Source: Proteromonas lacertae (taxonomy: Eukaryota). From it: a DNA stretch of 64,000 nucleotides. The notes beneath the pieces are model-generated. The model had not been told where the DNA came from. It did not search any database and saw only the letters and a list, made by a program, of their open reading frames with translations. Positions 7,612-59,477 of this stretch are shown here, in pieces; position 1 is the first letter of the stretch, and each line of letters begins with the position of its first letter. The position numbers and the translations under genes are program-made. The stretch lies in the NCBI GenBank assembly GCA_002245135.1, contig NGBS01000871.1, positions 186,001-250,000 on the forward strand. The letters run 5' to 3'.

Positions 7612-7771
7612 GTAGATCTAGGTATTTTATAGTCAAATAGATGTATTGAGTATCATAATAATATTTTGATTTAATGATTTTTTTTTTTTAAGTTTCTTGG
7701 TCAAGCTAAGTTTGAATGTAATTGACACGTCATTTTTTAATATTTTTTGTTTTTCAATTTAATAGTAAGAA

Positions 7772-11480: not shown

Positions 11481-11527
<47 letters not shown>

Positions 11528-11943: not shown

Positions 11944-12004
<61 letters not shown>

Positions 12005-12187
12005 ACTGAGAGTATTTTTGAATTTAGTGACTTTGAAGATAGTGGTGAAAATGATGATAATGATAGTGAAGATAGTGAAAGTGAATCAGAATATAGTGAA
12101 AATGAAAATAATAATGCAACAAAAAGAAAATGTGAAAGAAAATGTGAAGAATGTGATGAGAAGAAGAAGAAGAAACCAAAAAAATAG
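10685..12187 (+). CDS. N-terminal RING-HC protein with Pro/Gln-rich region, SIM-like motif and acidic tail
   Basis: CPVC..LRCSHSLC/KRC..WKDEGKNTCPLCR across a phase-2 intron; EVIDLTIDDDD motif; poly-Q and poly-D tracts. Confidence 0.8.
11945..12004 (+). repeat. (GAT)n microsatellite encoding poly-Asp
   Basis: Uninterrupted GAT run. Confidence 0.9.
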
Positions 12188-12321: not shown

Positions 12322-14174
12322 ATGACTGACTCTGAAAATGATGAAATAGAGTGTCCAATTTGTTTTACGAAAGTAAAAAAATCCGAATTGCAAAAATTAC
12401 CTTGTAAGCACTTATTATGGTATAATTAATGCTATACTATTGAATTTAATATAGTCATTCATGTTATGATAATTGGGTGAATGAAGGGAAGAATACTTGT
12501 CCATTTTGTAGAACAAAAATAAAACCTAACAGTCATATACGAATAAGCCGATTGCTTAATGATGGCTTCAATCCATACAGCCGTAATAGATATATTGACA
12601 TTAGTGATTCTCTTTTTATAGATAATTTACAAGATGATTATGATAATATAAGTGATGATGCTCTTGAAATACACAATAATTATGATTATTATAATGCACA
12701 ACCTCCTATTCGTTCATATCAAAATTCTATCGAGAGTTGCATGAATTATAGAAGAGAAAGAGTAGAAAATGAAAGACGAAATAGAAGACAACCACATACA
12801 TTACCTCCAGATCTACAAATATATGCACAAACATTATCACAAGATATATTAGATTTACAATATGAAATGACACAACGACAATGGATACAATTCCTCAGAG
12901 ATAATAAATCTGATACAAGTAATTCAAACAGTAATAATTACTCCAATAATCGACACTTGCCTGAACCACATTCACCACCACATTCATCATTATCATCAAA
13001 TATGTTTGAGCCACCACCAGCACCTGCAAGACCAATATCTCGTTTTAGAAATGAACCATTTCAAATTCCAATACAAGAACCTCCACCACCGCCACCACTT
13101 CAACCTCAACAACAATGTAATTCTCTTCAATTTCCACCACCATTACCATTTGAATCACATCACAGAATAATTGTTGAAAAGAAAAAAACAAAAACTACTA
13201 GTAATAAGATATATTTAGAATCATCAGATAGTTCTGAAGTTTCATCTATATCTTTTTCTGACTCAGATTCAGAAGATGATTCAAAGAATAAAACTGGATA
13301 TAGATATGGAAGAAGAAGAAGAAATAGAAAGAACAAATTAAAAATAATTAAAAATAAACCTCTAAATATTAGCAACAATGATAAAAGAAAAGAACTTCCA
13401 CAATATTCTAAATATGAATTGCCATCACCATTTGCTCCACAACAATCATCATCTTCAGATCAAATTATCCAACCATTACCATTTGCTGCACAACAATCAT
13501 CATCATCAGATCAATTCAATATACCAGCACCATTTGCTGCACAACAATCATCATCATCAGATCAATTCAATATACCAGCACCATTTGCTGCACAACAATC
13601 ATCATCATCAGATCAATTCAATATACCAGCACCATTTGCTGCACAACAATCATCATCTTCAGATCAATTTATCCAACCACCACCATTTGCTCCACAACAA
13701 TCATTATCATCAAATCAATCTATTCAACCACCACCATTCACTCAATCATCATCATCAGATCAATTCAATATACCGCCATTTGCTTATCCACCTCCACAAC
13801 GATTTATTCAACCTCCACCATTTACCCAATCACAAACACAAGAGACACAATCAAATCAATTTATCCAACCACCACCACCTCAACAACAACAACAGAATCA
13901 TTCATTTACAGCTCCACAATTTCCTAAATTCCCTATTTATCAACCATATTTACCTTCTTTTCAATCATTTCAACAAATACCTCCTCCAGCAACATCACAC
14001 CATCAACAAATACAAATTCAACATCCTCAAAAATTGATTGAAATAAAAGAATCTAATCATACATATGCTGATGGTGAAGATCAACAAATATCTCAACCAT
14101 TTAAATCAATACTTCAACATTTGAATCAAAATGAAAAAGAGAATAGTTATTATTTTGATGAAAATAAGATTTAA
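12322..14174 (+). CDS. Tandem paralog: N-terminal RING-HC protein with Pro/Gln/Ser-rich repeats
   Basis: CPIC..LPCKHLLC/HSC..WVNEGKNTCPFCR, with an intron at the same position as in the upstream gene. Confidence 0.8.
13428..13790 (+). repeat. Coding minisatellite, ~51-bp unit (APFAAQQSSSSDQFNIP), about 6-7 copies
   Basis: Near-identical units visible at 13480-13660, degenerating outward. Confidence 0.85.
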
Positions 14175-15332: not shown

Positions 15333-15785
15333 CTAATATTCCTCTGTTCCTGGTAAAGGTATTGTTCCATTCTCATATCCATGCATCAAACTATATTTAT
15401 AGATAATATTTAATAAATATAATACTCTGGACGGAGATGAGTTTGAATATTTCTTTCAACTATTGCCACATCATTTGCTTGTAAAGGTAATTTCGCACTA
15501 CTTAAAAATTTATTAACTTCATAATTTATTATTTTTTTCATAATGATATTTTTTGTATATTTAGGTGTGATTTGTGTAATTAAATATGATTTTGCTTTTT
15601 TAACTTTTTCTTCTTTTTCCCTTTGCCTTCTTAATTCTTTACTATGTTTGATTTGTTCTCTCATGTCTAATGTAAACTGTGAAGGAGCAACTCCAATGGT
15701 TGCGTGACTCAACTTTAAATCATTCATTAAGTCAGTAGTACTATACACTAAACAATAAACAATACTCTAAATGTTTAGTTGACAT
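15333..15785 (-). CDS. Short hypothetical protein, duplicate of the N-terminal domain of the neighbouring coiled-coil gene
   Basis: ATIGVAPSQFTLDMRE..KVKKAK..PKY..IINYEVNKF..NIQTHLRPE aligns with 17400-17680 and shares the intron after RPE. Confidence 0.65.
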
Positions 15786-15953: not shown

Positions 15954-17749
15954 TTAAAATAATTTAGTAGTTTGTTTTTGATGTCGAACTGGTGATGCTT
16001 CAGGTGCATACATTCCCATTCTAGCTTCTAATGTATTTCTCAATCCATCATTAGTTTTAATTTCATTTAATATCTTTTTATTCATTTCTCTTTCACGATC
16101 AGATAATTTATATTCACTTCGCAATCTATTCTCTTCCATTTGACGGAATTGAATATCTCTCACCTTCTCAGCTTCCATTCTACGTCTTCGAGTCTCGGCT
16201 TGTTCTCTTTCCAAAGCTTTTTTATTTTCAATAATCATTTGTCTTCTATATTCTTTATCTCTAGCATCTTCTTCTTCACTATATCATAAAATATAATAAA
16301 AAATATATATACTGCTCATGTTTCTTTACTTCCATTTGATTCAATAATGCTCTAGTTTGTTCCTCATTATTTCTTCTTATTTCTTCTTGTTTCTCTCTTT
16401 CAATTCTGTCTAATTCAGCTTCTCTTTCTCTAAAGTGTTGATCAATACGTGCATTCAATGCTTCTTCACTCATAAACTCTTCTTTCCTATTCATTTTATT
16501 CATTTCTGCTAATTTTTGTTGTCTATCATAAGTTTTTCTTAACCATAATTCTCTTTCTAATTCTTGTTGATCTAATCTTTCCTTTTCTTCTTTCATTAAT
16601 CTCATATCATTCATACGCTCTATTTCTGCTTCTTTAGCTAATCTTGCTTTATTCTTGATATTATCAGCTTGGATTTGATCTAATTCTTGTTTACGTCTAA
16701 GCTTTTCCTCTCTAGCTTGTTGTTCTTCATATTCCATTAATTTCTGAATTCTACGGACTTCTTTTCTTTCTTGTTTTCGTGTATGCTCAGCTTCTTGCTC
16801 TTTAGCTTCAGCTCTTTCTCTTAATTGAGTTAATTGAATTTGTCTAATTCTTTCAGATTGTTTCTGTTTCTCTATCATTTTCTGTCTTTCTTCTTCTTTG
16901 AATTTTTCATAATCTTTCTTTATTTCATTTCTTGTTTGCTCTATTTTATGTTCTTCTTCTTGTCTATATTGTTGATGCTCTTGTAATTGTAACGTTCTTA
17001 CTCTATTTGTTTCATTGATTCTTTCTTGTTCTTCACGTCTTCTTCTTTCATCATCTTCTTCTTCCTTTAAATTATAATATGTTTGTAATAAAGTCCAGTC
17101 CATTTCTCCTTGACCCACTCTTTGAGTTGTTTTCTTTGCATCTTCTGCATAATCTCTTAATGTATCATCATCTAATGCTTCTTCTTCTTCTTCTGGATAT
17201 TTCTTACTTCTATAGTTATTGATACTTCCTGTTGTGCTTGGACGACTACCAGTTCCTCCTGCTGGTGCAGTTGGAAGGTTTGTCTCCCATTTGCCTGTTA
17301 AACGCATTAATCTTGGGGATTTGAATGTCAATCTACCTGTTTTGAATGCAAATAATGTACTATATGGATTATTAGATTATTTATTAAATATTTATACTCT
17401 GGACGCATTTGTGCTTGAATATTTACTTCTAATTGTGAGAGATCATTTTGTTGGATTGGAAAACGGACATGCTTCATAAATTCATTTACTTCAGTATTGA
17501 TTATTTTACGAATTAATGGATCCTTAGCATATTTGGGGTATAATTGGTTTAAGATCAAACCTTTAGCTTTTTTAACTTTCTCATCTCTTTCTCTTTGTCT
17601 TTTGATCATTCTACTGTGTTGAACACTTTCTCTCATATTCATTGTGAATTCTGAAGGAGCAATTCCAATTGTAGCTGGTTTTGGTATTACGGTAAGTGAT
17701 GGTAGTCTATCAGACGATATTATTTCAATAAATACGTAGTCTTATGCAT
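15954..17749 (-). CDS. Glu/Arg/Gln-rich long helical protein resembling trichohyalin-plectin-homology (TPH) coiled-coil proteins
   Basis: Three short introns join ORFs 17328, 16279 and 15954. Continuous charged helix of ~350 aa after a MDWTLL motif. Confidence 0.55.
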
Positions 17750-21964: not shown

Positions 21965-24523
21965 ATGAGAGTATTTAAAGAGAGTATTGGGGATGGGTAT
22001 ATGTTAAACTTTGCTATTGTTATAGATTCTATTCAGCAATGGTGAATAGAAAGTTCAAAGAAGTTGAATTGATTATTGAAAATGAAGAAACTCCTTGTGT
22101 TTCTTCTATTTTGTGTGTATCAAATGAAAGGATGAATGATATAATAAATGACGATATAATTGAAGATAAAGTTACACTTCCTGACCAAATTACCAAGAAA
22201 GCGTTTTCACTATTATGTAGCTATTATGGATATGGAATGATAGATATTAATAAAGATAATGTGGTTGAATTATTGATATGTTGTCTTTGTTTGAATGAAG
22301 TAAATCTACTATGTATATGTAGAAAATACATACTAACTCATCTGAACAACAGATTTGTAGTTGATATAATTAAATTAATTGAAGAAGTACCAAGTAATTA
22401 TTTGGATGATGAAGAAGCATTAGTGAGTGATTATATTAGGTTAAGATGTATATCAATATTGGATGATAATAAAATATTTCGCATGTTAAATCTAAACAAT
22501 CTAAAATTCATAATTACACTTGAGAATCTATTAATTCCAAATGAAAAATATATATTAAATAAGATCTTGAAACACTACCATGAAAATATCGAAAGAATAG
22601 AAAGTATAAAACATAAAAATGCAAAATACAATGAAATTATGAAATATATAAATTGGAAAGATATCAAAATTCATGAGATTGATGAAAGTGATTTAGAAAT
22701 TATAGATATGAATATAATGAAAAAAAGTCCAAAATCAAAAATTAATAAAAAGAAAAAATGGAAGAATTCCTCATACGAGAAATGAAGTATTAAATGAGAT
22801 GATATTAAAGGGTATAAAGGATATTGATTCAATAGAAAAAATATATTGTATATTATTATTATAATTATATTTCAAATAGATGAAGATTGTAAATATATAT
22901 TATCATTTGATAATTTATTTGTTGAAATTAGTAAATATTTGAAAGAAAGTGAATATTTAATAGAAATAGTAACCATATTGAGGATAATAAAAGAACTGAA
23001 AATAGACAAGAACAAATTGGATATGAAAAATAGTGACAAAAGAAGTGTAATTAGATTATTAGTTAAGGAATATGAATCAAATGAAGAAGACAAATCACTG
23101 ATTGTGGAATGTTTATTATTTTTCTTAGATAATAGTATATATACTGTAATATATTATCATAAATATAGAAGAAATAATGCAATCTGTCTTTAATTTTTAT
23201 GGTAATTCTATATTTGCAGACTTATTAAATTGTGAAAGAATTGATGATAAATCAAAAATAATTGAATATGTTAGAGATTGTATGAATGAAAGTGATAGAA
23301 AACAAATAATATTGGCTATAAATGATGATGAAATAAAAGGTGAATTATTTCCACCATCCTTATATCACTTTTATGATTCTAGTATAGAATATAAACTTAC
23401 ATCATCAAATGATATAAAAGTGGGAATAGAACTAAATTATTTCACATCATCATGTTCAATACTAAAAGGTAATGAAATAACAGAATTAAGATCAGATGGT
23501 TATTCATGTTGCGTTCCTAATTATGTATATTATCATTCCTCTAAGAATGAAGTAAATGTTGGTGAACTTGCAGAAGTCAATGGTAAACAGAATCAAATAA
23601 TAAAATATCCAATGAATATAATTGGGCTAAGATATACTAATTCAGTTGTTCAAAATGCAGTTCGTAATTCTCCAGTAGCAATAGTAAACGATAATGGAAT
23701 TCCTAAATATGAATTACAATTCAATAACAATATTGTTCATTTGTCTGCTAAAGATGTTTTACTAGAAATTTTGAAATATATAAAAAGAAGAATTAACAAC
23801 AGTCTTAATCTAAACAATGGCCAAAAAATAATAGCGAAAATGTCAATTCCTATTGATTTAAATGATAAACAGAAAAAAGAGATTATAGAATGTGCAAAAG
23901 AAGCTGATATACTAGTAGAAATATTAATTCCTACTCCAATAGCAATATGCTCATCTTATTATCGTAATATTAATATGGATAATTATAAAATAGAGAAAAT
24001 ATTAGTATGTGATTTAAATTTGGAAAGTTTTGAATGTTCTATTGTAGAAATGAATAATAGAAGAAAAGCCATGAAAATTATATCATCTATACAAATTGAT
24101 ACTGGAAGTAATATGTTTATAGAAAAACTTGTTAATTATTATAGAAATGAATGCGAAGTACAAGCAGGATTAAAGATATCAAATCAAAAAATGCTGTGCA
24201 AACTTAGAAAAGAATGCCGAAATGTAGGAGAATATCTGTATGACGATAGTTATATTTACAACATTGATTGTGATTTTTTAGAAGATTGTGATGTTGATAC
24301 AGAAGTTACTCCAGCCACATTTCAACATATATGTAGAGATTTGTTTGATAGAGTATATAATAGAGTTTATTCCCTTATAAATGAAAGTATATTGTCAAAG
24401 AATGATATTAGAAGAATAGTTATAAAATGTAGTGATGTGAAAATAATGAAAAAGTATTTAAAATCTAGATTATCGATTGAAACAGAAGATGTGAAAAGTA
24501 TTAGTTCAATTAACATTGAGTAA
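21965..24523 (+). CDS. BTB/BACK-like protein fused to a degenerate Hsp70-type nucleotide-binding domain; one homopolymer frameshift
   Basis: BTB (AFSLLCSYYGYGMIDINKDNVVELLICCLCL); Hsp70-NBD-like VGIELNYF, VPNYVYY, MSIPIDLNDKQKKEIIECA, LIPTPIA, ILVCDL, TFQHICRDLF. Extra A in the run at 22720-22726. Confidence 0.7.
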
Positions 24524-24622: not shown

Positions 24623-26002
24623 TTAACTGTCATTAAGAGCTGCAACACCTGGTAATAATTTACCTTCCATAACTTCTAAGCTAGCACCTCCTCCAGTTGA
24701 AACATGGCTGATCTTTCCAGATAATCCAGTCTTTTTCAAAGCAGATACTGAATCACCTCCTCCAACGATTGAAATAGCACCATTTTCAGTACATTTAGCT
24801 ACAGTTTGTGCAATTGATAATGTACCTTTAGCGAATGGAGCATATTCAAATACACCCATTGGTCCATTCCATACAATAGTTTTAGCTTCACCTAATTTCT
24901 TAGCGAATAATTCTTCAGTCTTTGGACCTATATCTAAACCTAATTTACCAGCTGGCATATGATCCCAAGCACATACTTCATGAGCTGATTTAGCACTCAT
25001 TTCATCTGCACATACTACATCTACTGGTAATACTAATTCTACACCTTTAGCTTTAGCATCCTTTACTAATTGTTGTGTGAATTCCATTTGTGCTGGTTCT
25101 ACTAAACTCTTACCTACTTCTTTACCCATTGCTTTGTAGAAGGTGAACATCATAGCACCACCGATCAATAATTTATTAGCTTTTTGAATCAATGATTTCA
25201 TTACTGGAATCTTTGTTGATACTTTTGCACCACCAACTACTACAACTAATGGACGTTTTGGATCATCAATAGCACCATATAAGAAGGCTAATTCTTTTTC
25301 CATTAACATACCAGCAGCAGCTCTCTTGCATAACTTAGCAACACCAGCTGTTGATGCATGAGCTCTATGAGCTGTACCAAAGGCATCATTGACGTAGTAT
25401 GTTGCTCCTGTTGATTCTACTAATGCTTTAGCGAAATCTGGCTTGTTCTTTGTCTCACCTGGGTTGAATCTTACATTTTCTAATAACATTAAATCTCCGT
25501 CTTTTAATTGATCAGCTTGTTTCTTTACAACTGGGCCTGTGACTTCGGGTACATAGTAGACTTTTTTACCGAATAATTCTGATAATCTGTTAGCTACTGG
25601 GTCTAATCTTAATTTATCATCAACCTTCTTTGGTTTGCCTAAATGAGTGCAGACTACTACACGAGCTCCAGCTTCTGATAATAATTTAAGAGTTGGAATG
25701 GCAGCTCTGATTCTTGTATCATCGGTAATCTTTCTTGATCCATCCTTTGCAAGTGGTACATTCAAATCACATCTTACAAATACAGTTTGTCCCTAATTTA
25801 TTGATAATAAACAATGTATAATATACTTTTAAGTTTTCTGATGCAATGAGTTTTTTTACTGTTAATTTATTAGCTGGATGATTAGCTGGTAATGCAGAGA
25901 ATGATCTCAAGGTCATTTTTGCATATAAACCACTTTTTAATACAGAAGATGATGTCTTAAATACGGCCTATAGTATAAATGCAATTAAATCCATACTTGC
26001 AT
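24623..26002 (-). CDS. PGK: Phosphoglycerate kinase with N-terminal mitochondrial/MRO-type presequence
   Basis: VFVRCDLNVP, DDTRIRAA, THLGKP, LLENVRF, NDAFGTAHRAH, WNGPMGVFE, GGGDS, HVSTGGGASLE. Two 5' introns; leader MQAVFKTSSSVLKSGLYAKMTLRSFS. Confidence 0.97.
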
Positions 26003-27208
<1,206 letters not shown>

Positions 27209-30663: not shown

Positions 30664-30795
30664 TTTTCGGTTTAATATTTTCAAGCTTTCAAGCTTGTTT
30701 TTGTTGTAAGAAAAAAAAACAAGCAAACATCATTAAATCAAAATATTATTATGATACTCAATACATCTATTTGACTATAAAATACCTAGATCTAC

Positions 30796-32089
30796 CTAAA
30801 CATAAAAAGTTGAGTGTTTTGGCACTAATAGTATTAATTTGTTGTTATTTCTCTTTATTGATAGACTATGATAACTTCCTCTTCCAATACCACCACCATT
30901 ATTCAAACTGTCAAACATTTTCATTTTCCTTAACTTCCTTTTGTAATCTCTAATATCTTCATAATATATTTTATAAACTTCAACATTATCACTCTTTTTT
31001 TCTAATATACTGGATAAGTCTTCAATATTTATTTCTTTACTTTCTTTTACAACTTCTTTTATTACCATATCATAATTATTCTTAAGTAATGGTTTATAAT
31101 TAATCTCACTCCATTTTCACACTTTTATCATTCAATTTAATATTTAATAAATATTTAGTATAAAATGAATTTGGTGAATTAGCTCTACTTCCAAAGCTTG
31201 TTCCTTTTGAACCAAATGTATAACTTCTACTAACTTCAGGATATATACATACTCTATTCTTACGAATTTTATTATCTCTTAATACCAATCATCCCAATGA
31301 TGCTTTTGGCCATTTATTTCTTATTTCATCCCAAAAGTCTTTTCTCATTAACCATCCTAAACCAGGGAAAAAATCAGTTCTATATAATGCTTCTATTATT
31401 ATTATTATATTAATATATTATATATATTATATACTTGGATTTTCTACATTCTGTGGAAAACCATTATCATTCCAAGCACTAAGACACATTATTCTATTAA
31501 AAAAATATTACATAATTATATTATACGATTTATCTTCACTCATTATATCAGATAAACCATAAAAGAATTCAAGAAAATCATCAGCAAATTCTAAATCATC
31601 TTCTATTACTATTACTTGTTTATAATTCAATTCATCAAATATCTGTTTTAATGCCCAACCATAATGAATTGCTAGTCTTTTATATCCATCTCTGGCTTTT
31701 GCTACTTCATGATTTATATGAATTGTTTTTATTTTCTCTTTATTTTCTTTTATAAAATCTTTTATTACTTTACTTACTTCTTTATCATTTCCATCTTGAC
31801 TAATGACTAAATCTGGCTTTGATGGAGGATTTGGCAAATTGCATAGTTTCAAAACAGATTTTAATGTTCTTTCTAAATACTTATCTCTGTTATAACAAAT
31901 CAACAACATAGCTGTCTTTAGTTTTGAATAATGACTGATTTTCAACTCATTAAACCCATCTATAAGCCAGCTGTTTACATTATTGCCTTTGTATTTTGAC
32001 ATTTTTATTAAATGTGATTTATTTTTACAGAATTTCGATAATGCAATATACACTACACAAAAAGTTAATAAAAGCAAAGTAAACAACAT
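30796..32089 (-). pseudogene. MGAT1: GnT-I (GT13) copy 2, inverted duplicate with four single-base insertions
   Basis: Near-identical to 6435-7680, including introns and 3' flank. Extra bases near 31115, 31280, 31286 and 31299 break the frame. N-terminal TM/stem has diverged. Confidence 0.75.
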
Positions 32090-32652
32090 CTCATTATAAA
32101 TTATAAAAAAAAGAGTAAAAATTGAACTTGACTTTTATCAAGCTCTTTTCATTTTTATTTTGATATTATGTGTTTATTGGCTTATATCCTGTATGAATGG
32201 AAGTAGTGTGATATCAGATTAAATATACGCAACACTGTTGTATATAATAACTCAGTTGCTATAAGTTTTTTTAACTACAAACGTCTAATTCCGGTTTATT
32301 ATTATTCCGCATTGAAACCATCCACATGCCTTAGTCATTTTATATACACTTCATATTGTTATTATAATAACAGTACAAATACTGTACATTTCGATAATGC
32401 AATTATACTTACTATAAAAAAGTGATAAGAATGAAATTAAAATAATGAATGTTTTAATTCTTTTAAATCACCTTCATCATATTTATATATAAGACTGGAC
32501 GTTATTTAATCTGATATAAAGAGTATTAATGGAAAATAAGAAATTGAATAGAGTTAATAGCTTATGTGAATTTAAGAAATTAATTAACAATAATCCCAAC
32601 CTTATCATGTCACAATAAATAATTAACTAAAAAAAAACACATATATAATTTA

Positions 32653-44813: not shown

Positions 44814-45760
44814 AATGAGAATAATAATAAAAGGCTTGAATTTCGATTTGATATATTTTCACAAATAAACTTAAAATATGGAATCTAGTGAAATAGAATT
44901 TGAAATCCGAGAAATAGGAAAAGGTAGGCATAGTGTTGTAATGTTAGTTGAAAGGGGTGGTGTTAAAATGGCAAGAAAAGAAATAGATGTGTCAAAACTT
45001 CCTCCTGATGAAGTTAAATCGATAGATGAGGAAATAAAATTATTAAGTGTATTGAGAGATAGAAGTGTGCTAATCTACAAAGAATATAGACATGATAATA
45101 TGAACAACAAATATTACATATACACCGAATATCTTGAAAATGGAGATCTATTTCATTTGATCCAAAAGCAAGTAGCTAAAAGAGAATATTTTGATGAAAA
45201 GGTATAATTATTGTATTATTTGATAATAATAGACTATAAGAGTATATGTTGAAGATATAGCAAATGCATTAAAGTATATTCATAGTAAAGGAATAATTCA
45301 CAGAGATTTAAAACCTGCAAACATCTTTATAGGAAATCATAACAAATTAATAATTGGAGATTTTGGAATAGCAGTAAAAAGTGGTGATAAAGAAGTAAAA
45401 TTAATCGGAACAGCAGGATATATTGCTCCAGAGTTGTGGATTAGTAATCCTCCTAGCTATACAGCATCAACTGATATATTTTCCTTTGGTTGTATTTTAT
45501 ATGAGATATATACATTTCAAATGGCTTATAATGGTGAATCAAATACAAAAATTAGAGATTTAATATTAAATCCAAATTATCAAATACAATTTAATAGAAA
45601 TCCACAAATCTTTAATGTAGAATATCTAATAACAAGAATGTTAGAAAGAAATCCAATGAATCGTATAAGTTTAGATGAAATATTTACTACAATTGAACGA
45701 TGGAAAAATGGAATAAAAATATCAATGAATAGTTCATTTGATAATATAGAAAGTTTAGGT
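44814..45760. repeat. Inverted-repeat arm K1 (kinase + promoter), pairs with 53243-54184
   Basis: Near-identity by eye including the intron and the upstream AATGAGAATAATAATAAAAGGCTTGAATTTCGATTTGA; first ~25 codons diverged. Confidence 0.9.
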
Positions 45761-46201
45761 GAAAGAATAGTTAATTCACCTATAAAACATCAACCTATAC
45801 AACAACAAAAACTTCCACAGCAACCTCCTTTACCAGTATTTCCAGTTCTACCAATTCAACAACCAGTTCAGTCCAATAAATTCATTAATATAAGTAAGAA
45901 TCAACCAAATCAGTTAAATCAAGTAATGATGACTATTTATCCACCTCCACAATCACATTCTCCACCTCTTCCACCACCATCACAACAACAACAACCATTA
46001 TCACCTTCAATTTCACCTTCAATTTCACCAACATCACTCTCAGCTCAATTATCTCCTACACAACAAAAACCAATCAAAGTAAATAAATATATAAATATAA
46101 GCAATAATTTGAATAATAAACAAATGCAATATCCTTTATCTCAACCACCAATATCACAACTAAATTTCATTCAATTAAATAATGTTTATCCATTATCTTA
46201 A
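44878..46201 (+). CDS. NEK-like Ser/Thr kinase with short Pro/Gln-rich tail (kinase-only paralog)
   Basis: IGKGRHS, MARKEI, EEIKLL, EYLENGDL, HRDLKPANI, GDFG, GTAGYIAPE, TDIFSFGCILYE; one intron. Confidence 0.85.
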
Positions 46202-46287
46202 AACTTAATTATTTATAATTTTTGTGTTGTTGGGATTGAAATTTCTCATAATAACAATATTTAGGTTTGATTATGATTTGATCAAAT

Positions 46288-47417
46288 ATGAATAAAAATT
46301 CTTTTTATCTCCCTGTTGAAGGATTTTTTTCTTCTCATTCACTTGATAATATCAAAAAATCACCAGTGTCTTTAATATTTGATAGTAATTCCATCTATAA
46401 AATAGAAAATGACAGTAAAAGTTGTAGTTACAAGCAAATATGTATAAAAGTAGACACATATACTTATTAGACAAATGTGAGTCGAAAATGATGTATGTAA
46501 TAGATTTTATAAATGATTCTGATTGTGAAATATTAGTACAATCGATTAATAACAAGAATAACATGGAATTATCTTTGTTTAAATATAAAGAGGAAGGGGA
46601 AGAATTACAGTTATTATCTTCCATTGTTATTGATTTTGAACCAACAGAAACTATACTTGATTCTTACCTATTCCATGATATTTCAAGTCCAATATTGGTA
46701 ATAACATCAATAGATTGTAGATGTCACTATTATACTTTCAAAAATCATAAAATAGAAAAATACACACCAAAACATTCATTTTATAATATAATGAATTTAA
46801 CATCTTCATACATAGTAAAAATGCAAATATATAAAGAGAATAGCAACAATAAAATATGGTTAATGCTTGGATATGAAGATGGATCTTTTATTGTTATTGA
46901 TACAGATGAGTATTATTGAGTTTTATATTGTATAATAGAAATATTCAATATAATTGCATTTTTCCTGGTACAGTTTCTTCAATATTAACATTTCCTAATA
47001 CATTAACCTGTAATTATAATGATCATTCTTTTATATTGATTATTGGTACAATATATGGTGAAATATATGAATGTAAATTGAATAATGAATTGGTATATGA
47101 TTTTGTAATTTTATGTGATAGAAAATAATAGAATATGATTGTTTATACAGTAAGAAGAGTTGTATTCTTTCATTATGCTATTACAAGGTATATAATGCAT
47201 ATGTATATTTTAATAGAATAGAATATATATTGGAACTTTTTCAGAAAAACTGATCATTTTGGATTATAACAATGAAGAAAGTGATAATGAAAAGAAAGTG
47301 AAGAAAATTGATTCATTTGTGTATTCATATCCAATTATGAGTTTAAAAACAGTAGAGAATGAAATGTGTATTTATATTGCTACATTAAGAGAATTGTACA
47401 TCTTAAAACTAAAATAA
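46288..47417 (+). CDS. Beta-propeller protein, possibly kaptin (KPTN)-like
   Basis: Beta-strand-rich spliced ORF: DFEP..ILVITSIDCRCHYY, LMLGYEDG, GTVSSI, YIGTFSEKLII, YPIMSL..IATLRELYIL. Family call is from pattern only. Confidence 0.4.
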
Positions 47418-47431
47418 ATAATGAATTTTAT

Positions 47432-47896
47432 TTAATCTGTTTTTATTTTTGGATAGCATACATATCCTTCATAATACTGAGAGTTAATTTCTATACTTTT
47501 CTTTGTATTTGTATTATCTGATGTTTTATCATCATATAACTCGCACTCTGAATGATTAATCACTTTATAATCATTATGGTTAGGTTTATACGACTAAATA
47601 ATGTAAAATTAATAATATACTTCAATTATTTTGCAATAACTAATAAACTTGTTTAATTTCTTTTCTAATTCATTATTTGAAGATTTTCTAATATGAGATA
47701 ATTCATACAAGTGGTTTATCTAGAAAATGATAATTTCTACATATATTTACTTCTAATTTAGTTACTGCATTTTTATTCGTTTCAATAGATTTTCCTTGGA
47801 TATCATTAATAGATAAAACAGGCTTCTTAACAATCTAATCGATAATATTGCATATTATACTTGTTTTAATTCAAAATGCGAAATATACCGTCTCAT
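47432..47896 (-). CDS. Glu-tRNA(Gln) amidotransferase subunit C (GatC)-like, 3 introns
   Basis: Spliced: VTKLEINHLYELSHI..LEKKLNKFISYCKIIE..LYDD..GYVCYPK, a GatC-like pattern. Confidence 0.5.
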
Positions 47897-48019: not shown

Positions 48020-51000
48020 GAAATACAAATAATTAAATGGTTTTAAAGATTGGATTTAACTTTTCCAGAAATGTTTTTAAATCTGGTTTTATAACAATCT
48101 TTGATGTATTTTTCATTAATTCTTCAATTTTTCTTTTTAAATCTCCAGTAAATTCTTTCATTTTTGGAATTGTATAAAAATCTTTAATACAATCACATAC
48201 TTTCTCTAAAATTATCCAATAATTTTCATTTTCAATGAAATTGATTTTACTATTACATAATATAATTATCAAAATATACAATTCTTTTGTATTTATATTA
48301 TCAACACTAAACCCCTTAATTTCTATTCCAATTGCCTTTAATGATTTTTGAATTGTTTCATTTACTCTTCCTAAACATTCTTTATTATTCTTTATTTCAT
48401 TGATTTCTGAATCTGTGAAGAATGGTTTTGTTGGAATAATATTCTATTCATTATAAAAACTAAATTACATACAATATTCTTAACAATTGAAGAACAAGAA
48501 GAATTAATTCTCAATTTCTTAAATTCAACTCTACCAAAGTAATAATCTTTTATTTGTTGTTTAAAGTAATCTTCTCCTGATAAAGATTTCTTAGCTGGTT
48601 GAAAACTATTAATTAGATTATTCTTCAGTTTTTTCAATTGATTCTTTATTTCATTTTCTGGAAATATACAACATTCTGTTATTAATTCCAATATATGCAG
48701 TGATTGTCCATCTCTAATAATATATTAAATTACAATATTTATATATACAAATCATCTATATTTGGATGATGTAAACCACTAATATCAAAACGAATATTAT
48801 ATTCAGATAAGAACTTGTTTGATAAATCTAAAATTTTGTTAACTTTTTCTTTATCCAGTTTAAATACTATATATTAATAGAAATTAAATCATATATACAT
48901 TCACTATCATCTTTTGTGAATTTTGGACTTTTTTGATCAATTTTGGGAAATATAATATTATAATGTTCTTCTTTAAAATCAATTGTGTGTAAAACTACAT
49001 TTTTCATCTCTATTAAATCACTTATTTTATAATAATTTCTATCTATTTTCAAAGGAGTTATATCATCATAAAACTGAAAAACTATCTAAACGTCAAATAT
49101 TATATTAATTAATACATTAATTTCATTTTTTTCCTTACTAATTGGTGATAATGGAGGTTTTTTCTTATAATTCTTTTGAAATTCTAATACAGAATTTGGA
49201 ATATCTAAAATGTCATCTAACTTTATTAATTGAGAAAAATCTTTTGCTTTAGTCATTATTTCTTTAATTCTTTCTTCATTTCCTTTGTATTTTGATTCAT
49301 CTAATAATTCTATTTTTTTGTTTAAATCATCATATATTAATCCATATTTCTGTACAAATTTATAAAGAAAATTATTGTATCTTTCGATTGTTCTTGATTT
49401 ATTCTTTTTCATTTCTTTAATATCATCTTCTGTTAGTTTTGGATTATTCTGTTTCTTTGTTGGAAATATCCACTAATGTATTATATAATTAGGAAATATA
49501 CTGGAATATATTTTTCTATATTCAATTTGTTAAAATCATATTCACTCATTTTACATATATCTTCAAAATTATATCCATTTACTCTTTTATACCATAAAAT
49601 AAATTCTTTCTATTTCAATAATACTATTGATTATATACAATTTTAACATTAGGTATAACTGGAGAAACACTTCTATTCAGTGGTGGGGGATTATCAGTTG
49701 ATTCACCATTTATAAAACTGATAATTAAATCTGGAATATCAATCAATGAATAAAATTCTACAATTTCAAAATAACTCTTCATTCTTTTCATTATTCCTTC
49801 TATCTCATTTTTATATACTTCTATTTTACTTCTATCTGTTGATATAACTCTTCTGTTTATCTCATCATATTTCAATCCATATTTGGATAAGAATTTGTTT
49901 ATTATAATTTTGTATTTCTTTTCTAATTCACTCTTTTTTCCTTTTATTTGATATACATCTACTACAGTAATTTTACTTTCTTCAGGAAATAAATACTATA
50001 AAATATAAGTGGTAATAAACTTATACAGGAATAAATTTATCTATTGAAAAACTGTTGAAGTTTGATTGAGTCATATTCACTATCTCATCAAATGTTTTTC
50101 CACAAACAGGTGAAGAAAGTAATAAGAATGATTTCTATTAATAAATAAATTGAAAAATACAATAGGATTTGAAGATGGAGGTGGTGGAGGATATATTTCT
50201 CCTTCCTTTTCATTTATAAAACGTAGAACAGCTGTAGGTATTTTCAATAATTCAATCTGATCTATATCATTTAAAGATATTTTTATTCTTCCCATTAATT
50301 GTTTTATTTTTTCTTCATTTCCTTTGTATTTTGATTCAACTATTATTTTAATTATTTTACTCTTTTCATCATATTTCAATCCATATTTGGATATTAATTT
50401 CTTAAGAAAATTGCCGTATGATTTTTCTACTCTTTTAGTAAATTCTTTCATTTTTCTAATATCATCTTCTGTTAGTTTTGGATTATTCTGTTGCTTTGTT
50501 GGAAATATCCACTAATATATTATATAATTAGGAAATATACTGGAATATATTCATCCATATAGAATTCATTAAATTCATATTGATTCATATTATATATATT
50601 TTCAAAACTGTATTGATTTACTTTTCTGTCAAATAGAATGAAATCTTTCTATTTGATTATTAATATTTTAAAAAATACAATTGCTGTAATGTTTAAATTT
50701 CTGTGATTAATTATCTTTTCTATTAAAGAATAGTATAAATCATCTATTCCACATATTACCATTAAACTATTCTTTATTCTATTTAATACTTTCAATGATT
50801 CATCTCTAACTCTCCAATAACTATTTTAATCATATTAATAGAAATATACTCATAATTATCATTAATTCTAAAATCATTTCCATTTTCAACAACATCATAA
50901 CCATATTTTTCTAATATTAAATGAATTATTTCTTTATTGTTATATTTAAATAAATCATCATTTTGAAAGATCTTTCTATCATTCTCTGTAAATGAAGGAT

Positions 51001-52282
51001 TATCTTGATCAACTATTGGTAATAACCACTAAAATATAATAATAATTATTATTTATACATTCAATTCATTCAATGGATACCATTTTCGAAGGTCTTCATG
51101 TTTCATATTGACATAATCTTTAAACCAATAGCCAGTTTCAGATCTAATCTCTCCTCTATAAAATTTTATTACCTATTTCAATAAATTATAATATATAATA
51201 CATCTGATTCTACATGCATTGTTCCTTTAATTCGATCTTGAATTATTTTATTGATCAAATTGATTTTATCATTTTCTTTGAATGTATCTTTTATGCTTTG
51301 TCTTAAATGCTCTAATACTCTCTTTGTTTCTTCTTTTCCTTTCCATATACTATAATTATTTGGATGTTGCTGAAATGAATTATCTTCAAATTCAACTACA
51401 TATCCATTCTTGATTAATACAACTCTCATTAAGTCATAATAGTATATTTTTATCATTTCATTTTCTACAAATTCTTTTCTTTCTTCTTCTGTAAATTTGG
51501 GTGGATGGATTTGATTTAAGTGAGGAAAGAAAAACTATAATCATTATCAATATAAAATATACATATAAATCATCATGATTAAAATAATTTTGAGATGTTT
51601 TTCCATCTAAATTCATATAATAATCCAATTTGTGTTTATTATATTCTAATTCTACACAATAGAACTTTATTATCTATTCATTATTATATAGAATGAAATA
51701 CGTTTGATTTAATTGCTTTATTCTCTTCTTCTTTATGTTGCTTTGATTCTATTCTTCCATTCTTTACTTTTTCTTTATTCTTGTCTTTTGATTTGTTGTT
51801 TTTATCTTGATTATTTCTTTCTTCAATTATTTGACAATCTATTATTAGTATATCAATATTTTTATTATTACTTTCTAGTAATTCGTTCAATCTATCTAAT
51901 AACTTTGAATCATTAAATGTATCTTTCATACTCTTTATCACTATCTTTAATAAATCAATACATTTTGATTTTGACATATTCTCACTCTTTCTATTATTAC
52001 AATATTACAAATATATATATACAAACATATATTTATTAAAGAATCTATCAACAAATTGTAGTTTTCTTCTATTATATCATTTTCTACAAATTCTTTTTTG
52101 ATTTCTTCATTGAATAATGGTGATAATTGGTTTAAATGAGGAAATAAATACTATTTACATTTAAATATATCATTATATACACTACTATATTTCATATATT
52201 CTTCAATACTTAGATTTTGTTGATAATCATAAACATTTTTTCCATTTATATCTTCTTCAAATATATAGAATTGAATTATCTA
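48020..52282. repeat. Inverted-repeat arm R1 (OGFr-like array), pairs with 56352-59490
   Basis: Long stretches identical in reverse complement, including introns (e.g. ORFs 51178/57150, 48033/59232). Confidence 0.9.
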
Positions 52283-54124
52283 TAAACAATTAATGAATAA
52301 ATAACAAATACTTTTGATTTTTCACATTCTACAGTCTTTTCTACATTATTTTCTCTATTATCAACTTCTTTCATTATGTCTTTTTCATTTTTTTCTTTAG
52401 GTTTTACCTTTTCTTCTTTTTTTACTTTCTTTCTTTCATCATCATTCTTCTTTTTTTTATCTACTTCTTCATCTGAAGAAGAAGATGATGATGATAATTT
52501 TCTTTTCTTTTTATGATGATGTTTTCTCTTCTTCTTTTCTTCTTCATCACTACTTTCATCATCATTTTCATCATTATTACATTGAGGAGGTGGTGGAGGT
52601 GGAGGTGGTGGATATTGTTGTGGTGGTTGCAGTGGTAGTGGTGGTTGTAATGCCATTAATGGTTGATTACGATTGTTATTAATCTGCTGAGGAGGAGGTG
52701 GAGGTGGAACAAATTGTATTTGGTTATTATTCATATAAAAAGGATAATTATTTGAATATGGTGGTGGAGGTGGAGGTGGAATATTTGGATTATAATAAGC
52801 AGTTTGCATTATTTGATTTGGTGGTGGAGGTGTTGATAAATTTCCACTAAGATATTGATGATTATTCAGATTGTTTAGAATATTCATAAATTTATTTGTT
52901 TGATTTTGATTAGGTAAACTTGACTTTCTATTACTAATTATACTACTAGGTAATGATCTTCCCAATGGGTTATCTTCTACTACTTGAGGAGGGTTAATAG
53001 CAGGTGAAGGAGTAATGGATCTTTGATGAGCTTGTGAATTTGGTCTAACTGGCTGTTGAAACTGTTGTTGTGGTGGTGGTGGTTGTATTTGTGGAAATGG
53101 TTGTTGTGGTAGAAGTGGTTGTGGTTGTAGTGGTTGTTGTTGCATTTGTAGATAAGGTTGTGGTTGTTGTAGGTTTTGTTGTAATGGTTGTTGTTGCATT
53201 TGTAGATAAGGTTGTGGTTGAGGTCTATTTACAACTGTTACACCTAAATTTTCTATATTATCAAATGAACTATTCATTGATATTTTTATTCCATTTTTCC
53301 ATCGTTCAATTGTAGTAAATATTTCATCTAAACTTATGCGATTCATTGGATTTCTTTCTAACATTCTTGTTATTAGATATTCTACATTAAAGATTTGTGG
53401 ATTTCTATTAAATTGTATTTGATAATTTGGATTTAATATTAAATCTCTAATTTTTGTATTTGATTCACCATTATAAGCCATTTGAAATGTATATATTTCA
53501 TATAAAATACAACCAAAGGAAAATATATCAGTTGATGCTGTATAGCTAGGAGGATTACTAATCCACAACTCTGGAGCAATATATCCTGCTGTTCCGATTA
53601 ATTTTACTTCTTTATCACCACTTTTTACTGCTATTCCAAAATCTCCAATTATTAATTCGTTATGATTTCCTATAAAGATGTTTGCAGGTTTTAAATCTCT
53701 GTGAATTATTCCTTTACTATGAATATACTTTAATGCATTTGCTATATCTTCAACATATACTCTTATAGTCTATTATTATCAAATAATACAATAATTATAC
53801 CTTTTCATCAAAATATTCTTTTGTAGCTGCTCGATTTTGGATTTTATGAAATAGATCTCCATTTTCAAGATATTCGGTGTATATGTAATATTTGTTGTTC
53901 ATATTATCATGTCTATTTTCTTTGTATATCAAAACACTTCTATCTCTCAATACACTTAATAATTTTATTTCTTCATCTATCGATTTAACTTCATCAGGAG
54001 GAAGTTTTGACACATCTATTTCTTTTCTTGCCATTTTAACACCACCCCTATCAATTAATTTCACTACACTATATCCACCTTTTCCAATTGTTTTCATCTC
54101 TATTTCATTAGTGTTATTATTCAT
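48033..54124 (-). CDS. NEK-like kinase + Pro/Gln linker + eight tandem degenerate OGFr_N-like domains (~20 introns, ~1800 aa)
   Basis: Kinase exon 2 splices in phase 0 (intron 52280-52311) into repeated units with pattern [IV]xxFY..G../W[LI]FP..P.[LF]TE.D..F..L.KYG..RI..SL. No stop found along the spliced path. Confidence 0.75.
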
Positions 54125-54190: not shown

Positions 54191-55005
54191 ATGAGTACTT
54201 CTGTGCAAACAACTAAAGTAGATTTTATAAACTTACTACAAAAAATGGAATCCTTTTCAACAGAAGAATTATCGAATATATGTGTCTCTCTGTATATATC
54301 TAAATTGAGGTATATTTTATTGAATTATATTGAATTAGTGAATTGTGGAAATTATTGAATGAAAATAACCAATATTTGAGCAAGCCACTCTCTTTTGAAA
54401 CATTAAGATCTTACGAAAAGAGATATTCAATCTTAATAAGGAATTTACATAACCCAAAATCATCAAAGAATCCAATTATAAATTCAAAATCCAAATCTTC
54501 AGATGTTCCCAACACAAAATCAAAAGAATTAGACTTAAAGAAACAGTTATTTGGTGTATGAATATATATAATTCAATACTATAAGTATTATTCATAGAAT
54601 AAGTATAAAAAAGAACTCCTAATTGATGAAGAGTATTAATAATCACATTATTCTCTATTAGGTTAGAAAATGATATAAATAAGCATGTATCATTTCAAAA
54701 TGACATAAAAAATGAAATATTATCAATGAGTGAACAGTTACAAATCCAAGGAAATGATGTAAATAGTATAATTAAATCAGATATGTCAATTTTAAAGCCT
54801 TCTCAACAATTAATGGAAGAAAGTATAAATATTTATGGAATTATTATATCATATAGATTCATATAATTTATCAAAAACTCAATTAAAGTTGGAAGAAGTG
54901 ACTCATAAAGGAAGATGTATGTGTTGCAATTATGTCTCCACTACTGTGATGATTATGATGATTTTTATGTTTATGGTGATGTTAATGAAAACATTACCAA
55001 AATAA
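54191..55005 (+). CDS. USE1: USE1-like ER Qc-SNARE (4 introns)
   Basis: QNDIKNEILSMSEQLQ..IIKSDMSIL..NLSKTQLKLEE SNARE helix, then Cys-rich CMCC and C-terminal TM ending MKTLPK. Confidence 0.65.
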
Positions 55006-55159: not shown

Positions 55160-58100
55160 ATGTTTAATAGCAATAATAATAATCAAGTATATACATCTTA
55201 TGGAACACTACAACAAAATGGTCCTAATACTTCTCCATATCAACCTCGTCAAGTTAATAGATATATTTACAGTGCAAATAGAGTAACACAAAATCAAATT
55301 CCATCTTTGATACCTCATTCATATCCGTATCAGCAATCTCAAACTCAACAGAAACAACAAATTAACATTCAACAACAACAACCACCTATTCAACAACAAC
55401 CACCTATTCAACAACATTCAACAACAACAACTTATTCAACAACAACATCCTATTCAACAACAACAACATCCTATTCAACAACAACAACATCCTATTCAAC
55501 AACAACAACTTATTCAACAACAACAACTTATTCAACAACAACAACATCCTATTCAACAACAACAACATCCTATTCAACAACAACAACTTATTCAACAACA
55601 ACCACCTATTCAACAACATCATTCTATTCAACAACAACAACTTATTCAACAACAACAACATCCTATTCAACAACAACAACATCCTATTCAACAACAACAA
55701 CATCCTATTCAACAACAACAACTTATTCAACAACAACAACTTATTCAACAACAACAACATCCTATTCAACAACAACAACATCCTATTCAACAACAACAAC
55801 ATCCTATTCAACAACAACAACAACTTATTCAACAACAACAACTTATTCAACAACAACAACTTATTCAACAACAACAACATCCTATTCAACAACAACAACA
55901 TCCTATTCAACAACAACAACATCCTATTCAACAACAACTTATTCAACAACAACATCCTATTCAATTACTACCTACAATTGAAGAAGAAGAATCATTACCA
56001 GCAATAGAAGATCAGTCTATTTTGGAAGATAGAGATCATATTCAAGAACAAATAATGCAGATTATAAAAGAACTACCAATACACCAGTTACATGATATAT
56101 TTCAACTTTTAGAAATTGTACAGAATCAAAAACAACAAATACTTCCTCTTCTTCATCACCTCACGATGATGCTAATGAAAGTGATGATGAAATTAGTAAT
56201 AAAGAAAAAGAAGACAAAATAGAAGAAAATTCAGATATGGAAAGGAAAGTCGATGAAATAGATGATGATGAAAAGAAAAAAAGGAAAAAAGAAGATGAGA
56301 TGAATAAAGTAGAAGAATCTATTGTATTTGCTTTTTTTGTCATTATTGTTTTATAGATAATTCAATTCTATATATTTGAAGAAGATATAAATGGAAAGAA
56401 TGTTTATGATTATCAACAAAATCTAAGTATTGAAGAATATATGAAATATAGTAGTGTATATAATGATATATTTAAATATAAATAGTATTTATTTCCTCAT
56501 TTAAACCAATTATCACCATTATTCAATGAAGAAATCAAAAAAGAATTTGTAGAAAATGATATAATAGAAGAAAACTACAATTTGTTGATAGATTCTTTAA
56601 TAAATATATGTTTGTATATATATATATATATAATTATAATAGAAAGAGTGAGAATATGTCAAAATCAAAATGTATTGATTTATTAAAGATAGTGATAAAG
56701 AGTATGAAAGATACATTTAATGATTCAAAGTTATTAGATAGATTGAACGAATTACTAGAAAGTAAAATTATTGATATAATAATAATAGATTGCCATCAAG
56801 ATAAAAACAACAAATCAAAAGAAATAAATAAATAAAAAGTAAAGAATGGAAGAATAGAATCAAAGCAACATAAAGAAGAAGAGAATAAAGCAATTAAATC
56901 AAACGTATTTCATTCTATATAATAATGAATAGATAATAAAGTTCTATTGTGTAGAATTAGAATATAATAAACACAAATTGGATTATTATATGAATTTAGA
57001 TGGAAAAACATCTCAAAATTATTTTAATCATGATGATTTATATGTATATTTTATATTGATAATGATTCTAGTTTTTCTTTCCTCACTTAAATCAAATCCA
57101 TCCACCCAAATTTACAGAAGATGAAAGAAAAGAATTTGTAGAAAATGAAATGATAAAAATATACTATTATGACTTAATGAGAGTTGTATTAATCAAGAAT
57201 GGATATGTAGTTGAATTTGAAGATAATACGTTTCAGCAACATCCTAATAATTATAGTAAATGGAAAGGAAAAGAAGAAACAAAGAGAGTATTACAGCATT
57301 TAAGACAAAGCATAAAAGATACATTCAAAGAAAATGATAAAATCAATTTGATAAATAAAATAATTCAAGATCGAATTAAAGGAACAATGCATGTAGAATC
57401 AGATGTATTATATATTATAATTTATAGAAATAGGTAATAAAATTCTACAGAGGAGAAATAAAATGTAAATACATTGAATATAATATAAATTCTTATGTCA
57501 ATATGAAACATGTAGAACTTAGAGGATGGCATCCATTGAATGAAATTAATGTATAAAGAATTATTATTATTACATTTTAGTGGTTATTACCAATAGTTGA
57601 TCAAGATAATCCTTCATTTACAGAAGATGATAGAATGATCTTTCAAAATGATGATTTATTTAAATATAACAATAAAGATATAATTTATTTAATATTAGAA
57701 AAATATGGTTATGATGTTGTTGAAAATGGAAATAATTTTAGAATTAATGATAATTATGAGTATATTTCTATTAATATGATTAAAATAGTTATTGGAGAAG
57801 TAGAGATGAATCATTGACAGTATTTGAAAGAATAAAGAATAGTTTAATGGTAATATGTGGAATAGATGATTTATACTATTCTTTAATAGAAAAGATAATT
57901 AATCACAGAAATTTAAACATTACAGCAATTGTATTTTTTAAAATATTAATAATCAAATAGAAAGATTTCATTCTATTTGACAGAAAAGTAAATCAATACA
58001 GTTTTGAAAATATATATAATATGAATCAATATGAATTTAATGAATTCTATATGGATGAATATATTCCAGTATATTTCCTAATTATATAATATATTAGTGG

Positions 58101-59477
58101 ATATTTCCAACAAAGCAACAGAATAATCCAAAACTAACAGAAGATGATATTAGAAAAATGAAAGAATTTACTAAAAGAGTAGAAAAATCATACGGCAATT
58201 TTCTTAAGAAATTAATATCCAAATATGGATTGAAATATGATGAAAAGAGTAAAATAATTAAAATAATAGTTGAATCAAAATACAAAGGAAATGATTAAAT
58301 GAAATATTTGAAATACCATTTTCTGTATTAGAATTTCAAAAGAATTATAAGAAAAAACCTCCATCATCACCAATTAGTAAGGAAAAAAATGAAATTAATG
58401 TATTAATTAATATAATATTTGATGTTTAGATAGTTTTTCAGTTTTACGATAATGTAACTCCTTTGAAAATAGATAGAAATTATTATAAAATAAGTGATTT
58501 AATAGAGATGAAAAATGAAGTTTTTTACAAACTCAATTTTAAAGTAGAACATTATAATATCATATTTCCCAAAATTGATCAAAAAAGTCCAAAATTTACC
58601 AAAGATGATAGTGAATGTATATATGATTTAATTTCTATTAAAATATAGTATTTAAACTGGATAAAGAAAAAGTTAACAGGGTGTTAGATTTATCAAACAA
58701 GTTCTTATCTGAATATGATATTCATTTTGATGCTTGTGGAAATTTAAATTATCCAGAGTTATATAAGATGTATATCAATTTTAGTTTATTATGTATTTAG
58801 AGATAATCATGCTTTACCATTAATAGCAATGATTACAGAATGTTGTACATTTCCACAAAATGAAATGAAAGAAGAATTGAGAGAAATGAAAGATAATCTT
58901 GATGATGAATTTAAATCAGTTAAACATACAATACAAGATGAATATTACTTTAAACAGCAAATAAAGGATTATTACTTTGGTAGAATAGAATTTAAGAAAT
59001 TGAGAATTAGTTTTTCATGCGATTCAATTATTGAGAATATTGTATGTAATTTTCTTGTATAATGAATAGAATATTATTCCAACAAAACCATTCTTCACAG
59101 ATTCAGAAATCAATGAAATAAAGAATAATAAAGAATGTTTAGGAAGAGTAAATGAAACAATTCAAAAATCATTAAAAGCTATTGGAATAGAAATTAAGGG
59201 GTTTAGTGTTGATAATATAAATACAAAAGAATTGTATATTTTGATAATTATATTATGTAATAGTAAAATCAATTTCATTGAAAAACAACAAAATTGGATA
59301 ATTTTAGAGAAAGTATGTGATTGCATTAAAGATTTTTATACAATTCCAAAAATGAAAGAATTTACTGGAAGTTTAAAAAGAAAAATTGAAGAATTAAAAA
59401 GTAAAAATGAAATTGTTATAAAACCAGATTTAAAAACATTTCTGGAAAAGTTAAATCCAATCTTTAAAACCATTTAA
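55160..59477 (+). pseudogene. Kinase-less paralog: poly-Gln repeat N-terminus + OGFr-like array, disrupted
   Basis: Frameshifts near 55415 and 56130. In-frame TAA at 56833 where the paralog has GAA. Out-of-frame ~1.1-kb deletion at ~58295 fusing repeat 4 to repeat 6. Confidence 0.7.
55370..55962 (+). repeat. Coding minisatellite (CAA)3-5 + CATCCTATT/CTTATT, encoding [13 protein letters not shown] units
   Basis: About 30 units of 15-21 bp visible directly. Confidence 0.9.

Follow-up and report, generated by a model that had tools for sequence, protein, structure and literature searches.

What does a locus encode when a protein kinase appears to continue, across a run of fragmented reading frames, into a long array of degenerate repeats? 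The question is raised by a 64,000-nucleotide (nt) stretch of the Proteromonas lacertae assembly GCA_002245135.1 (contig NGBS01000871.1, positions 186,001 to 250,000, forward strand), here referred to as the window, in which kinase and repeats lie on the minus strand between 54124 and 48033 (gene B). Analysis of gene B confirmed that kinase and array are joined in one predicted protein, the splice itself being predicted from sequence, and supported a derivation of its eight repeat units from the OGFr_N domain (PF04664). Our preferred reading, which we hold with somewhat better than even confidence, is that gene B encodes a kinase bearing a multivalent, non-catalytic recognition array that would recruit partners or gate the kinase.

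The initial gene model came from a minimum-intron search between the ATG at 54124 and the TAA at 48033 and was refined afterwards by setting one intron at 50160-50135 and adding two in-frame introns (51871-51839 and 48279-48250), both shared with the neighbouring paralogue C; unlike the other array introns, these two are placed by their conservation in the paralogue. The gene has 22 exons and 21 introns of 26-35 nt, every one GTA...TAG, and neither stop codons nor frameshifts interrupt its predicted 1819 codons (1819 amino acids, 5460 nt). An open frame requires 17 of the 19 array-internal introns. When only GTA..TAG introns of 25-36 nt were allowed, the real 4244-nt array region could be read through with 17 introns, none of 300 shuffled sequences passed (longest reach 222 nt), and the opposite strand failed too. 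Both the intron count and this control agree with the original prediction that fragmented open reading frames (ORFs) at 48-52 kb join through introns of about 30 nt into the kinase frame. The window is AT-rich (21-36% GC per kb), with introns of about 30 nt; in Blastocystis, introns of 30 nt and a GC content of 39-55% are described for the human subtypes, and a GC content of 21-23%, more variable introns and canonical stop codons for tortoise isolates (PMC12129017).

Kinase and array meet at a predicted 32-nt, phase-0 intron (52280-52311, minus strand). A phase-0 intron occupies the equivalent site before each of units 1-7, and a second lies immediately upstream of the xFP motif in seven of the eight units, so that the repeat can be described as a two-exon cassette and the junction intron as one regular cassette intron. 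If that intron were retained, or the message polyadenylated early, the kinase transcript would end near 52276 and kinase and array would be separate products. Retention would bring an in-frame TAA at 52278-52276 into the message, a TGTTTGTT variant with one mismatch is found at 52310, and kinase-only and array-only paralogues adjoin gene B. However, one-mismatch TGTTTGTT motifs number 207 in the window, the 4-nt spacing published in PMC4159000 would leave no stop codon, and we find no support for the polyadenylation reading. The junction intron also resembles the unit-start introns and is present in paralogue C, exon 3 lacks a Met upstream of position 26 of unit 1, and relatives are fused without this intron. 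Separate products are thus improbable.

The Ser/Thr kinase domain (amino acids ~8-266; 53296-54124, minus strand, with one intron at 53800-53770) was recognized by Pfam, motifs and tree. The Gly loop, beta3 Lys, alphaC Glu, HRD..N, DFG and APE of active eukaryotic Ser/Thr kinases are all found (GKGGYS at 14, K34, DEE at 50-52, HRDLKPAN at 131, DFG at 151 and APE at 173), and Pfam Pkinase matches both kinase exons, as expected from the intact kinase (HRDLKPAN, DFG, APE) first described here. The designation 'NEK-like' in that description stands for the nearest solved relative and not for orthology, which the tree does not show. The layout, an N-terminal kinase followed by a C-terminal non-catalytic region, is that of NEK kinases, and the top solved match was NEK2 for exon 1 of gene B and NEK1 for the related kinase P0157 (133 against 107 bits for the next). 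With the C-lobe alone, PLK2, RSK2 and NEK1 all fell within 5 bits. In a tree of 59 rows, the best-scoring of 118, the window kinases form one clade with P0157, P0158, P0160 and P0165 (support 99/91). This clade is lineage-specific, its link to NIMA-named rows is without support, and the deep tree is unresolved. No phosphoacceptor directly precedes the GT of the activation loop.

Between kinase and array lie a Pro/Gln-rich low-complexity linker (amino acids 271-505, 25% P and 19% Q by composition; 52579-53283, minus strand) and an acidic, Ser-rich and basic stretch (amino acids 506-594; 52312-52578, minus strand). The basic cluster at amino acids 520-532 is likely a nuclear localisation signal, judging from its sequence.

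The C-terminal 1225 amino acids (595-1819) divide into eight units of 145-161 amino acids, close to the ~1250 amino acids and eight repeats of ~140-170 amino acids initially proposed. All on the minus strand, they are unit 1 (amino acids 595-755; 51702-52279), unit 2 (756-903; 51202-51673), which groups in the tree with the close relative P0123, unit 3 (904-1048; 50679-51172), which is the unit originally quoted as best preserved and has the best colinearity with OGFr_N, unit 4 (1049-1201; 50161-50648), unit 5 (1202-1356; 49639-50134), unit 6 (1357-1511; 49116-49609), with 51% identity to unit 4, the divergent unit 7 (1512-1665; 48557-49085), and unit 8 (1666-1819; 48033-48556), the most divergent, whose start was placed by eye. 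Leave-one-out hidden Markov models (HMMs) scored each unit at 12-115 bits, a level reached for no unit by any of 500 shuffles; units 7 and 8 were the weakest. An independent profile, made from 19 units of relatives only, recovered all eight (9.7-99.5 bits).

Several comparisons tie these units to OGFr_N. A family HMM was built from 146 intact OGFr_N domains, taken from 120 listed longer proteins and from bacterial genomes, of which 17 out of 201 and 7 out of 301 carried the domain above cut-off. It scored units 6, 4, 3, 5 and 8 at 26.6, 24.6, 19.0, 10.6 and 8.9 bits, each above all 500 shuffles. Profile alignment of the units with OGFr_N by hhalign gave a probability of 96.7% (E 3.2e-10, 154 columns), rising to 97.2% (E down to 5e-11) with relatives added, and reversed controls stayed below 0.5%. 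In the other direction, a unit profile with relatives and no OGFr input gave more than 10 bits to 108 of the 146 family domains, and 52.3 at best, whereas the best unrelated sequence among 1277 background ORFs reached 8.7. The first suggestion of OGFr-like domains is thus borne out by profile comparison both ways. Relatives were recovered by searching a window-exon profile against 1.84 billion proteins, which gave 18 matches; 15 are true relatives, and the ten that were looked up occur in Logan only. The other three (P0126, P0131 and P0136) are unrelated repeat proteins and were dropped. Nothing was found when longer proteins were searched by a word-based method with the unit-2 exon, or in phages by tblastn.

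A structural match to OGFr, proposed at the outset as a check, was sought through the homologue P0121, modelled with OGFr members excluded from the alignment. Its unit was predicted mostly at 70-96 on the predicted local distance difference test (pLDDT) and shows the same order of helices and hairpin as an intact OGFr model. The top Foldseek match was a Marseillevirus OGFr (A0A481YX38; probability 1.00, TM score 0.61, E 2.4e-3), the next having E 0.58. Searches of the PDB gave no OGFr_N sequence relative below E 0.04, no Foldseek match and no solved structure of the family; structure comparison gave only generic helical matches (best Z 7.5 and 6.9). The predicted unit fold is mainly helical; Pfam gave no Macro match, and no macrodomain stood among the 50 structural rows listed.

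Although the scaffold is shared, the conserved polar residues of the family are lost from the units. In OGFr_N these are E36, H39, Q43, H123, N124, R127, T129 and R130 (86-100% conserved; L081 numbering). Of the 146 family domains, 131 have the HxYIQ motif and 135 have HNxxRxxR; none of 27 units has either, so that the decay of His, Gln and Arg residues noted in the original prediction extends to every unit compared. The His column of HxYIQ reads Y, D, D and E in units 3-6, and of HNxxRxxR the last Arg alone survives, by alignment, in units 3-5. FY, FP, P-F-T and L-K-Y-G are kept. Relative to OGFr_N, five residues are missing from the loop after FP, and a new Gln stands five residues after FP in 23 of 23 units where it aligns, units 5 and 8 being without it. 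Other conserved positions are a Pro (26/26) and a Gly (25/26), with Ser frequent at another (20/25), and the net charge of the units ranges from -5 to +7. In a tree from which four short units were excluded, a single long branch (2.19, support 99/98) separates all 23 remaining units from 35 intact domains. Pfam PF04664 (22-bit cut-off) matched none of 11 array-exon ORFs, scanned singly rather than as spliced units, 18 profile matches and four kinase-fused relatives. Because the family motifs fail and Pfam detects none in exons or homologues, the units are, on sequence criteria, a derived subfamily and not members of PF04664. Decay of the same kind is seen separately in animal-type two-domain OGFr proteins, often one intact and one degenerate copy (P0011, P0015, P0017, P0024, P0026, P0096 and P0097); one copy is without a motif in 10 of 16 such proteins, a count that truncation at domain edges may inflate.

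Is the fusion peculiar to this locus? The original prediction called for a search for kinase-OGFr fusions in related genomes, and in three of the four closest kinases found (P0157, P0165, P0158 and P0160) a single unspliced ORF runs without interruption through the kinase, a Ser/Pro linker and a whole unit. The unit scores 89 bits in P0157, 53 in P0158 and 68 in P0160, the next among 120 kinases being 3.2. These relatives occur in other samples, at 45-54% kinase identity. Their ORFs stop about where a unit-boundary intron would begin, and longer arrays are possible. Unit 1 of gene B clusters with the first units of P0158 and P0160 (98/86, with a long-branch caveat). A scan of JGI metagenomes with the kinase alignment found distant kinases only (78 loci, 28-41% identity), and no relative's whole array was readable. 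These observations support the fusion as a family trait of related organisms rather than a one-off. Among the papers listed by literature searches, which covered mostly open-access work, none described a kinase-OGFr fusion or an ADP-ribose activity of OGFr_N. Kinase and OGFr_N are each known. Those papers gave no precedent for their combination in one protein, for an array of eight units or for the degenerate subfamily, and the kinome tables of Blastocystis genome papers may bear on this novelty.

Gene B is flanked by two partial inverted copies, which were defined by alignment. Paralogue A (44878-46201, plus strand) is a kinase copy with its own P/Q tail (430 amino acids) and no array; its kinase has 92% amino acid identity and a ratio of nonsynonymous to synonymous divergence (dN/dS) of 0.42, and the copy starts within a shared promoter region (44814 = 54184). 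Paralogue C (55160-59477, plus strand) is an array copy without a kinase. It has a stop in unit 1 (56833-56835) and a frame change near 55417, and near 58295 a deletion shifts the frame and joins unit 4 to unit 6; C is likely a pseudogene. At its N-terminus (55380-55960, plus strand), an extended tandem repeat rich in Gln (QQQQHPI / QQQQLI) precedes a helical segment without a Pfam match, which we take to resemble an ET domain. The arrays of B and C diverge with a dN/dS of 0.60 (p 0.008) and alternate between long stretches of identity and patches of dense divergence, the latter in units 3 and 7, a pattern expected from gene conversion. The longest identical tracts, 464 and 119 nt, were reached in none of 2000 permutations; gene conversion is clear in the array and marginal in the kinases (83 of 2000). 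Such copies, 83-95% identical and in the case of C broken, might suggest that gene B is itself a recent local chimera born of inverted duplications, its array now decaying. Fusions at 45-54% kinase identity in other samples, the grouping of unit 1 with relatives' first units despite long branches, and an open frame over 1819 codons speak against it. With three related kinases carrying the unit in a single ORF, we rejected this explanation as extremely unlikely.

What the units do depends in part on what intact OGFr_N does. The function of the domain is described as poorly understood, and OGFRL1 as a gene in recessive cherubism (PMC11062026). A second Pfam family is present in 25 of the 120 long OGFr_N proteins listed; in 17 of the 25 it belongs to ADP-ribose processing (ARH 12, Macro 2, microbial PARG 2, PARG 1), and in none is it a kinase. 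We also surveyed 33 viral OGFr_N loci and scanned 13 longer OGFr ORFs among them. One is an alpha-like RNA-virus replicase (L221:166-5325, plus strand, IMG/VR contig) with OGFr_N at amino acids 582-701, between methyltransferase and superfamily 1 helicase, and others are fusions to NADAR (one), the ubiquitin hydrolase UCH (two) and UBA (one) (L199:2329-3480; L215:2995-4653; L220:2929-4572; L230:1-4023). The 76 viral OGFr neighbours include one NADAR and one Sir2. RNA-virus polyproteins of this kind are described as containing embedded Macro and NADAR domains (PMC9503650); the main text of that paper contains none of the terms opioid, OGF and DUF1810. Because OGFr_N is fused to ADP-ribose-processing enzymes and placed in a viral replicase, the intact domain is, by analogy, likely an enzyme of ADP-ribose processing.

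In the mechanism that we propose for gene B, a Ser/Thr kinase with intact motifs would be tethered by a low-complexity linker to eight OGFr_N-derived domains. The lost His/Gln/His/Asn/Arg set would correspond to the OGFr_N active site, and since it is taken as such, the units would be pseudo-enzymes: non-catalytic binding modules bringing partners to the kinase or gating it. Together they may provide multivalent recognition, with proteins as the most likely targets, and the basic patch would probably direct the product to the nucleus. The array may have grown by duplication of the two-exon cassette bounded by phase-0 introns and may still be reshuffled through duplication, deletion and gene conversion. 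Fast divergence of the units, duplication and conversion are compatible with a recognition role.

A more specific form of this mechanism would have the units read ADP-ribose, whether free or attached to protein or nucleic acid, and link this mark to phosphorylation. The ARH, Macro and PARG fusions, the two viral cases among 13 longer ORFs (NADAR and replicase), the replicase site of a kind that holds Macro and NADAR domains, the viral neighbours and the new invariant Gln in the post-FP loop all point that way. However, the whole polar set is lost and not one catalytic residue, which argues against a retained pocket; the post-FP loop is shortened, the net charge varies widely between units, and the activity of intact OGFr_N is only putative. 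By analogy, then, ADP-ribose reading is a tentative possibility. Alternatively, the conserved Gln (23/23 where aligned) and frequent Ser (20/25) could belong to a rebuilt active site with new chemistry. Units 5 and 8 are without that Gln, no conserved His, acid or Arg cluster accompanies it, and the other conserved columns are mostly hydrophobic, Pro or Gly; a rebuilt enzyme is therefore very unlikely. More far-reaching, and in our view rather doubtful, is a combined proposal: that OGFr_N proteins, including human OGFR and OGFRL1, are unrecognised ADP-ribose-removing enzymes, and that a protist lineage made from them arrays of dead readers wired to kinases, a receptor turning ADP-ribosylation (its own, bacterial or viral) into phosphorylation.

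Several observations weigh against a kinase with an OGFr_N-derived recognition array, or against its ADP-ribose context. At the junction, retention of the intron would close the frame at 52276. Kinase without array exists in paralogue A, and the ORF of P0165 ends before any unit. The family HMM misses units 1, 2 and 7 individually, which are joined through the repeat profile only, and the fold test used P0121 rather than the window protein, with a modest E-value. Some units may be spacers, because the divergence of units 4, 5 and 6 (dN/dS 0.75-0.80, near saturation) is not significantly below neutral. As for ADP-ribose, 12 of the 17 fusions are of one type (ARH) and may be a single event, and 52 ORFs beside bacterial OGFr genes include no ADP-ribose domain above the Pfam cut-off, one weak ADP-ribosyltransferase match and no consistent partner.

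Other features of the window were recorded alongside. A likely USE1 SNARE gene (54191-55005, plus strand; Pfam E 8e-7, below cut-off) lies head to head with gene B, with 66 bp between start codons, and an intron-split gene with weak beta-propeller-like Pfam hints (BBS2_Mid, E 0.009) sits between paralogue A and gene B (46282-47593, plus strand). A second inverted duplicate pair consists of GNT-I family glycosyltransferase genes (6241-7682, plus strand, and 30725-32156, minus strand; 94% identical). There are also a 71% direct repeat (15390-15703 / 17359-17675), an adjacent pair of paralogous RING-like, Pro/Gln-rich ORFs (10802-12187 / 12450-14174), and a BTB-like domain with a divergent Hsp70-type ATPase region downstream of it (21979-24523, plus strand; Pfam HSP70 E 4e-28), possibly one gene. 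PGK (24623-25792, minus strand) and GAPDH (26123-27208, plus strand) form a head-to-head pair of long uninterrupted ORFs, and the N-terminus of GAPDH resembles a presequence. Glycolytic genes with mitochondrial-type leaders are a trait of Blastocystis-like stramenopiles, which this feature, together with the AT-rich sequence and the introns of about 30 nt, would suggest as the source.

What emerges is a repeat subfamily, and with it a kinase architecture, that went undetected by Pfam in every exon and homologue scanned. The 27 units, set against 146 intact domains, form a natural loss-of-function series indicating which residues are worth mutating in OGFr_N, the domain of the human disease gene OGFRL1 (PMC11062026). 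If the units read ADP-ribose, gene B would couple ADP-ribosylation directly to a kinase in a gut protist; if they serve only as scaffolds, the array would still be a clear example of an enzyme-like fold reused as fast-evolving repeats.

Compared with known systems, the units are colinear over ~140-150 columns with PF04664 (human OGFR and OGFRL1; bacterial, fungal and viral single-domain forms) and share its scaffold (FY..G, [WY]xFP, P.[FL]T, YG; predicted helix/hairpin order), but their alignment lacks a match to the family's last helix and five residues are deleted after FP. Eight copies in gene B contrast with at most two stretches per protein among the 120 listed long OGFr_N proteins. Two-domain OGFr proteins of molluscs, frogs and fish have tandem domains as in gene B, although they mostly retain one intact domain, have no kinase and have two copies only. 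DUF1810 (Rv1873, PDB 2JEK) aligns with an intact OGFr model at Z 6.1 (root mean square deviation 3.7, 116 aligned), its HWxWFxFP motif falling on OGFr HxYIQWLFP, but this Z is within the generic helical range and the hhalign probability is 2%. With NEK1 and NEK2, gene B shares the N-terminal kinase and the long non-catalytic C-terminal region; NEK1 was the top solved match of P0157 and NEK2 that of exon 1, but the C-lobe scores do not discriminate, the clade is lineage-specific and the phosphoacceptor before GT is missing. A last comparison is with the macro-PARPs PARP9/14/15, described as combining a catalytic domain with tandem macrodomains, some readers and one an eraser; in PARP14, macrodomains 2-3 read what macrodomain 1 erases (PMC10470015). 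Gene B has another fold, a kinase rather than a transferase, eight copies that are all degenerate and a putative binding activity, whereas the likeness, by analogy, would lie in a tandem ADP-ribose-linked fold, some copies of it non-catalytic, wired to a writer enzyme.

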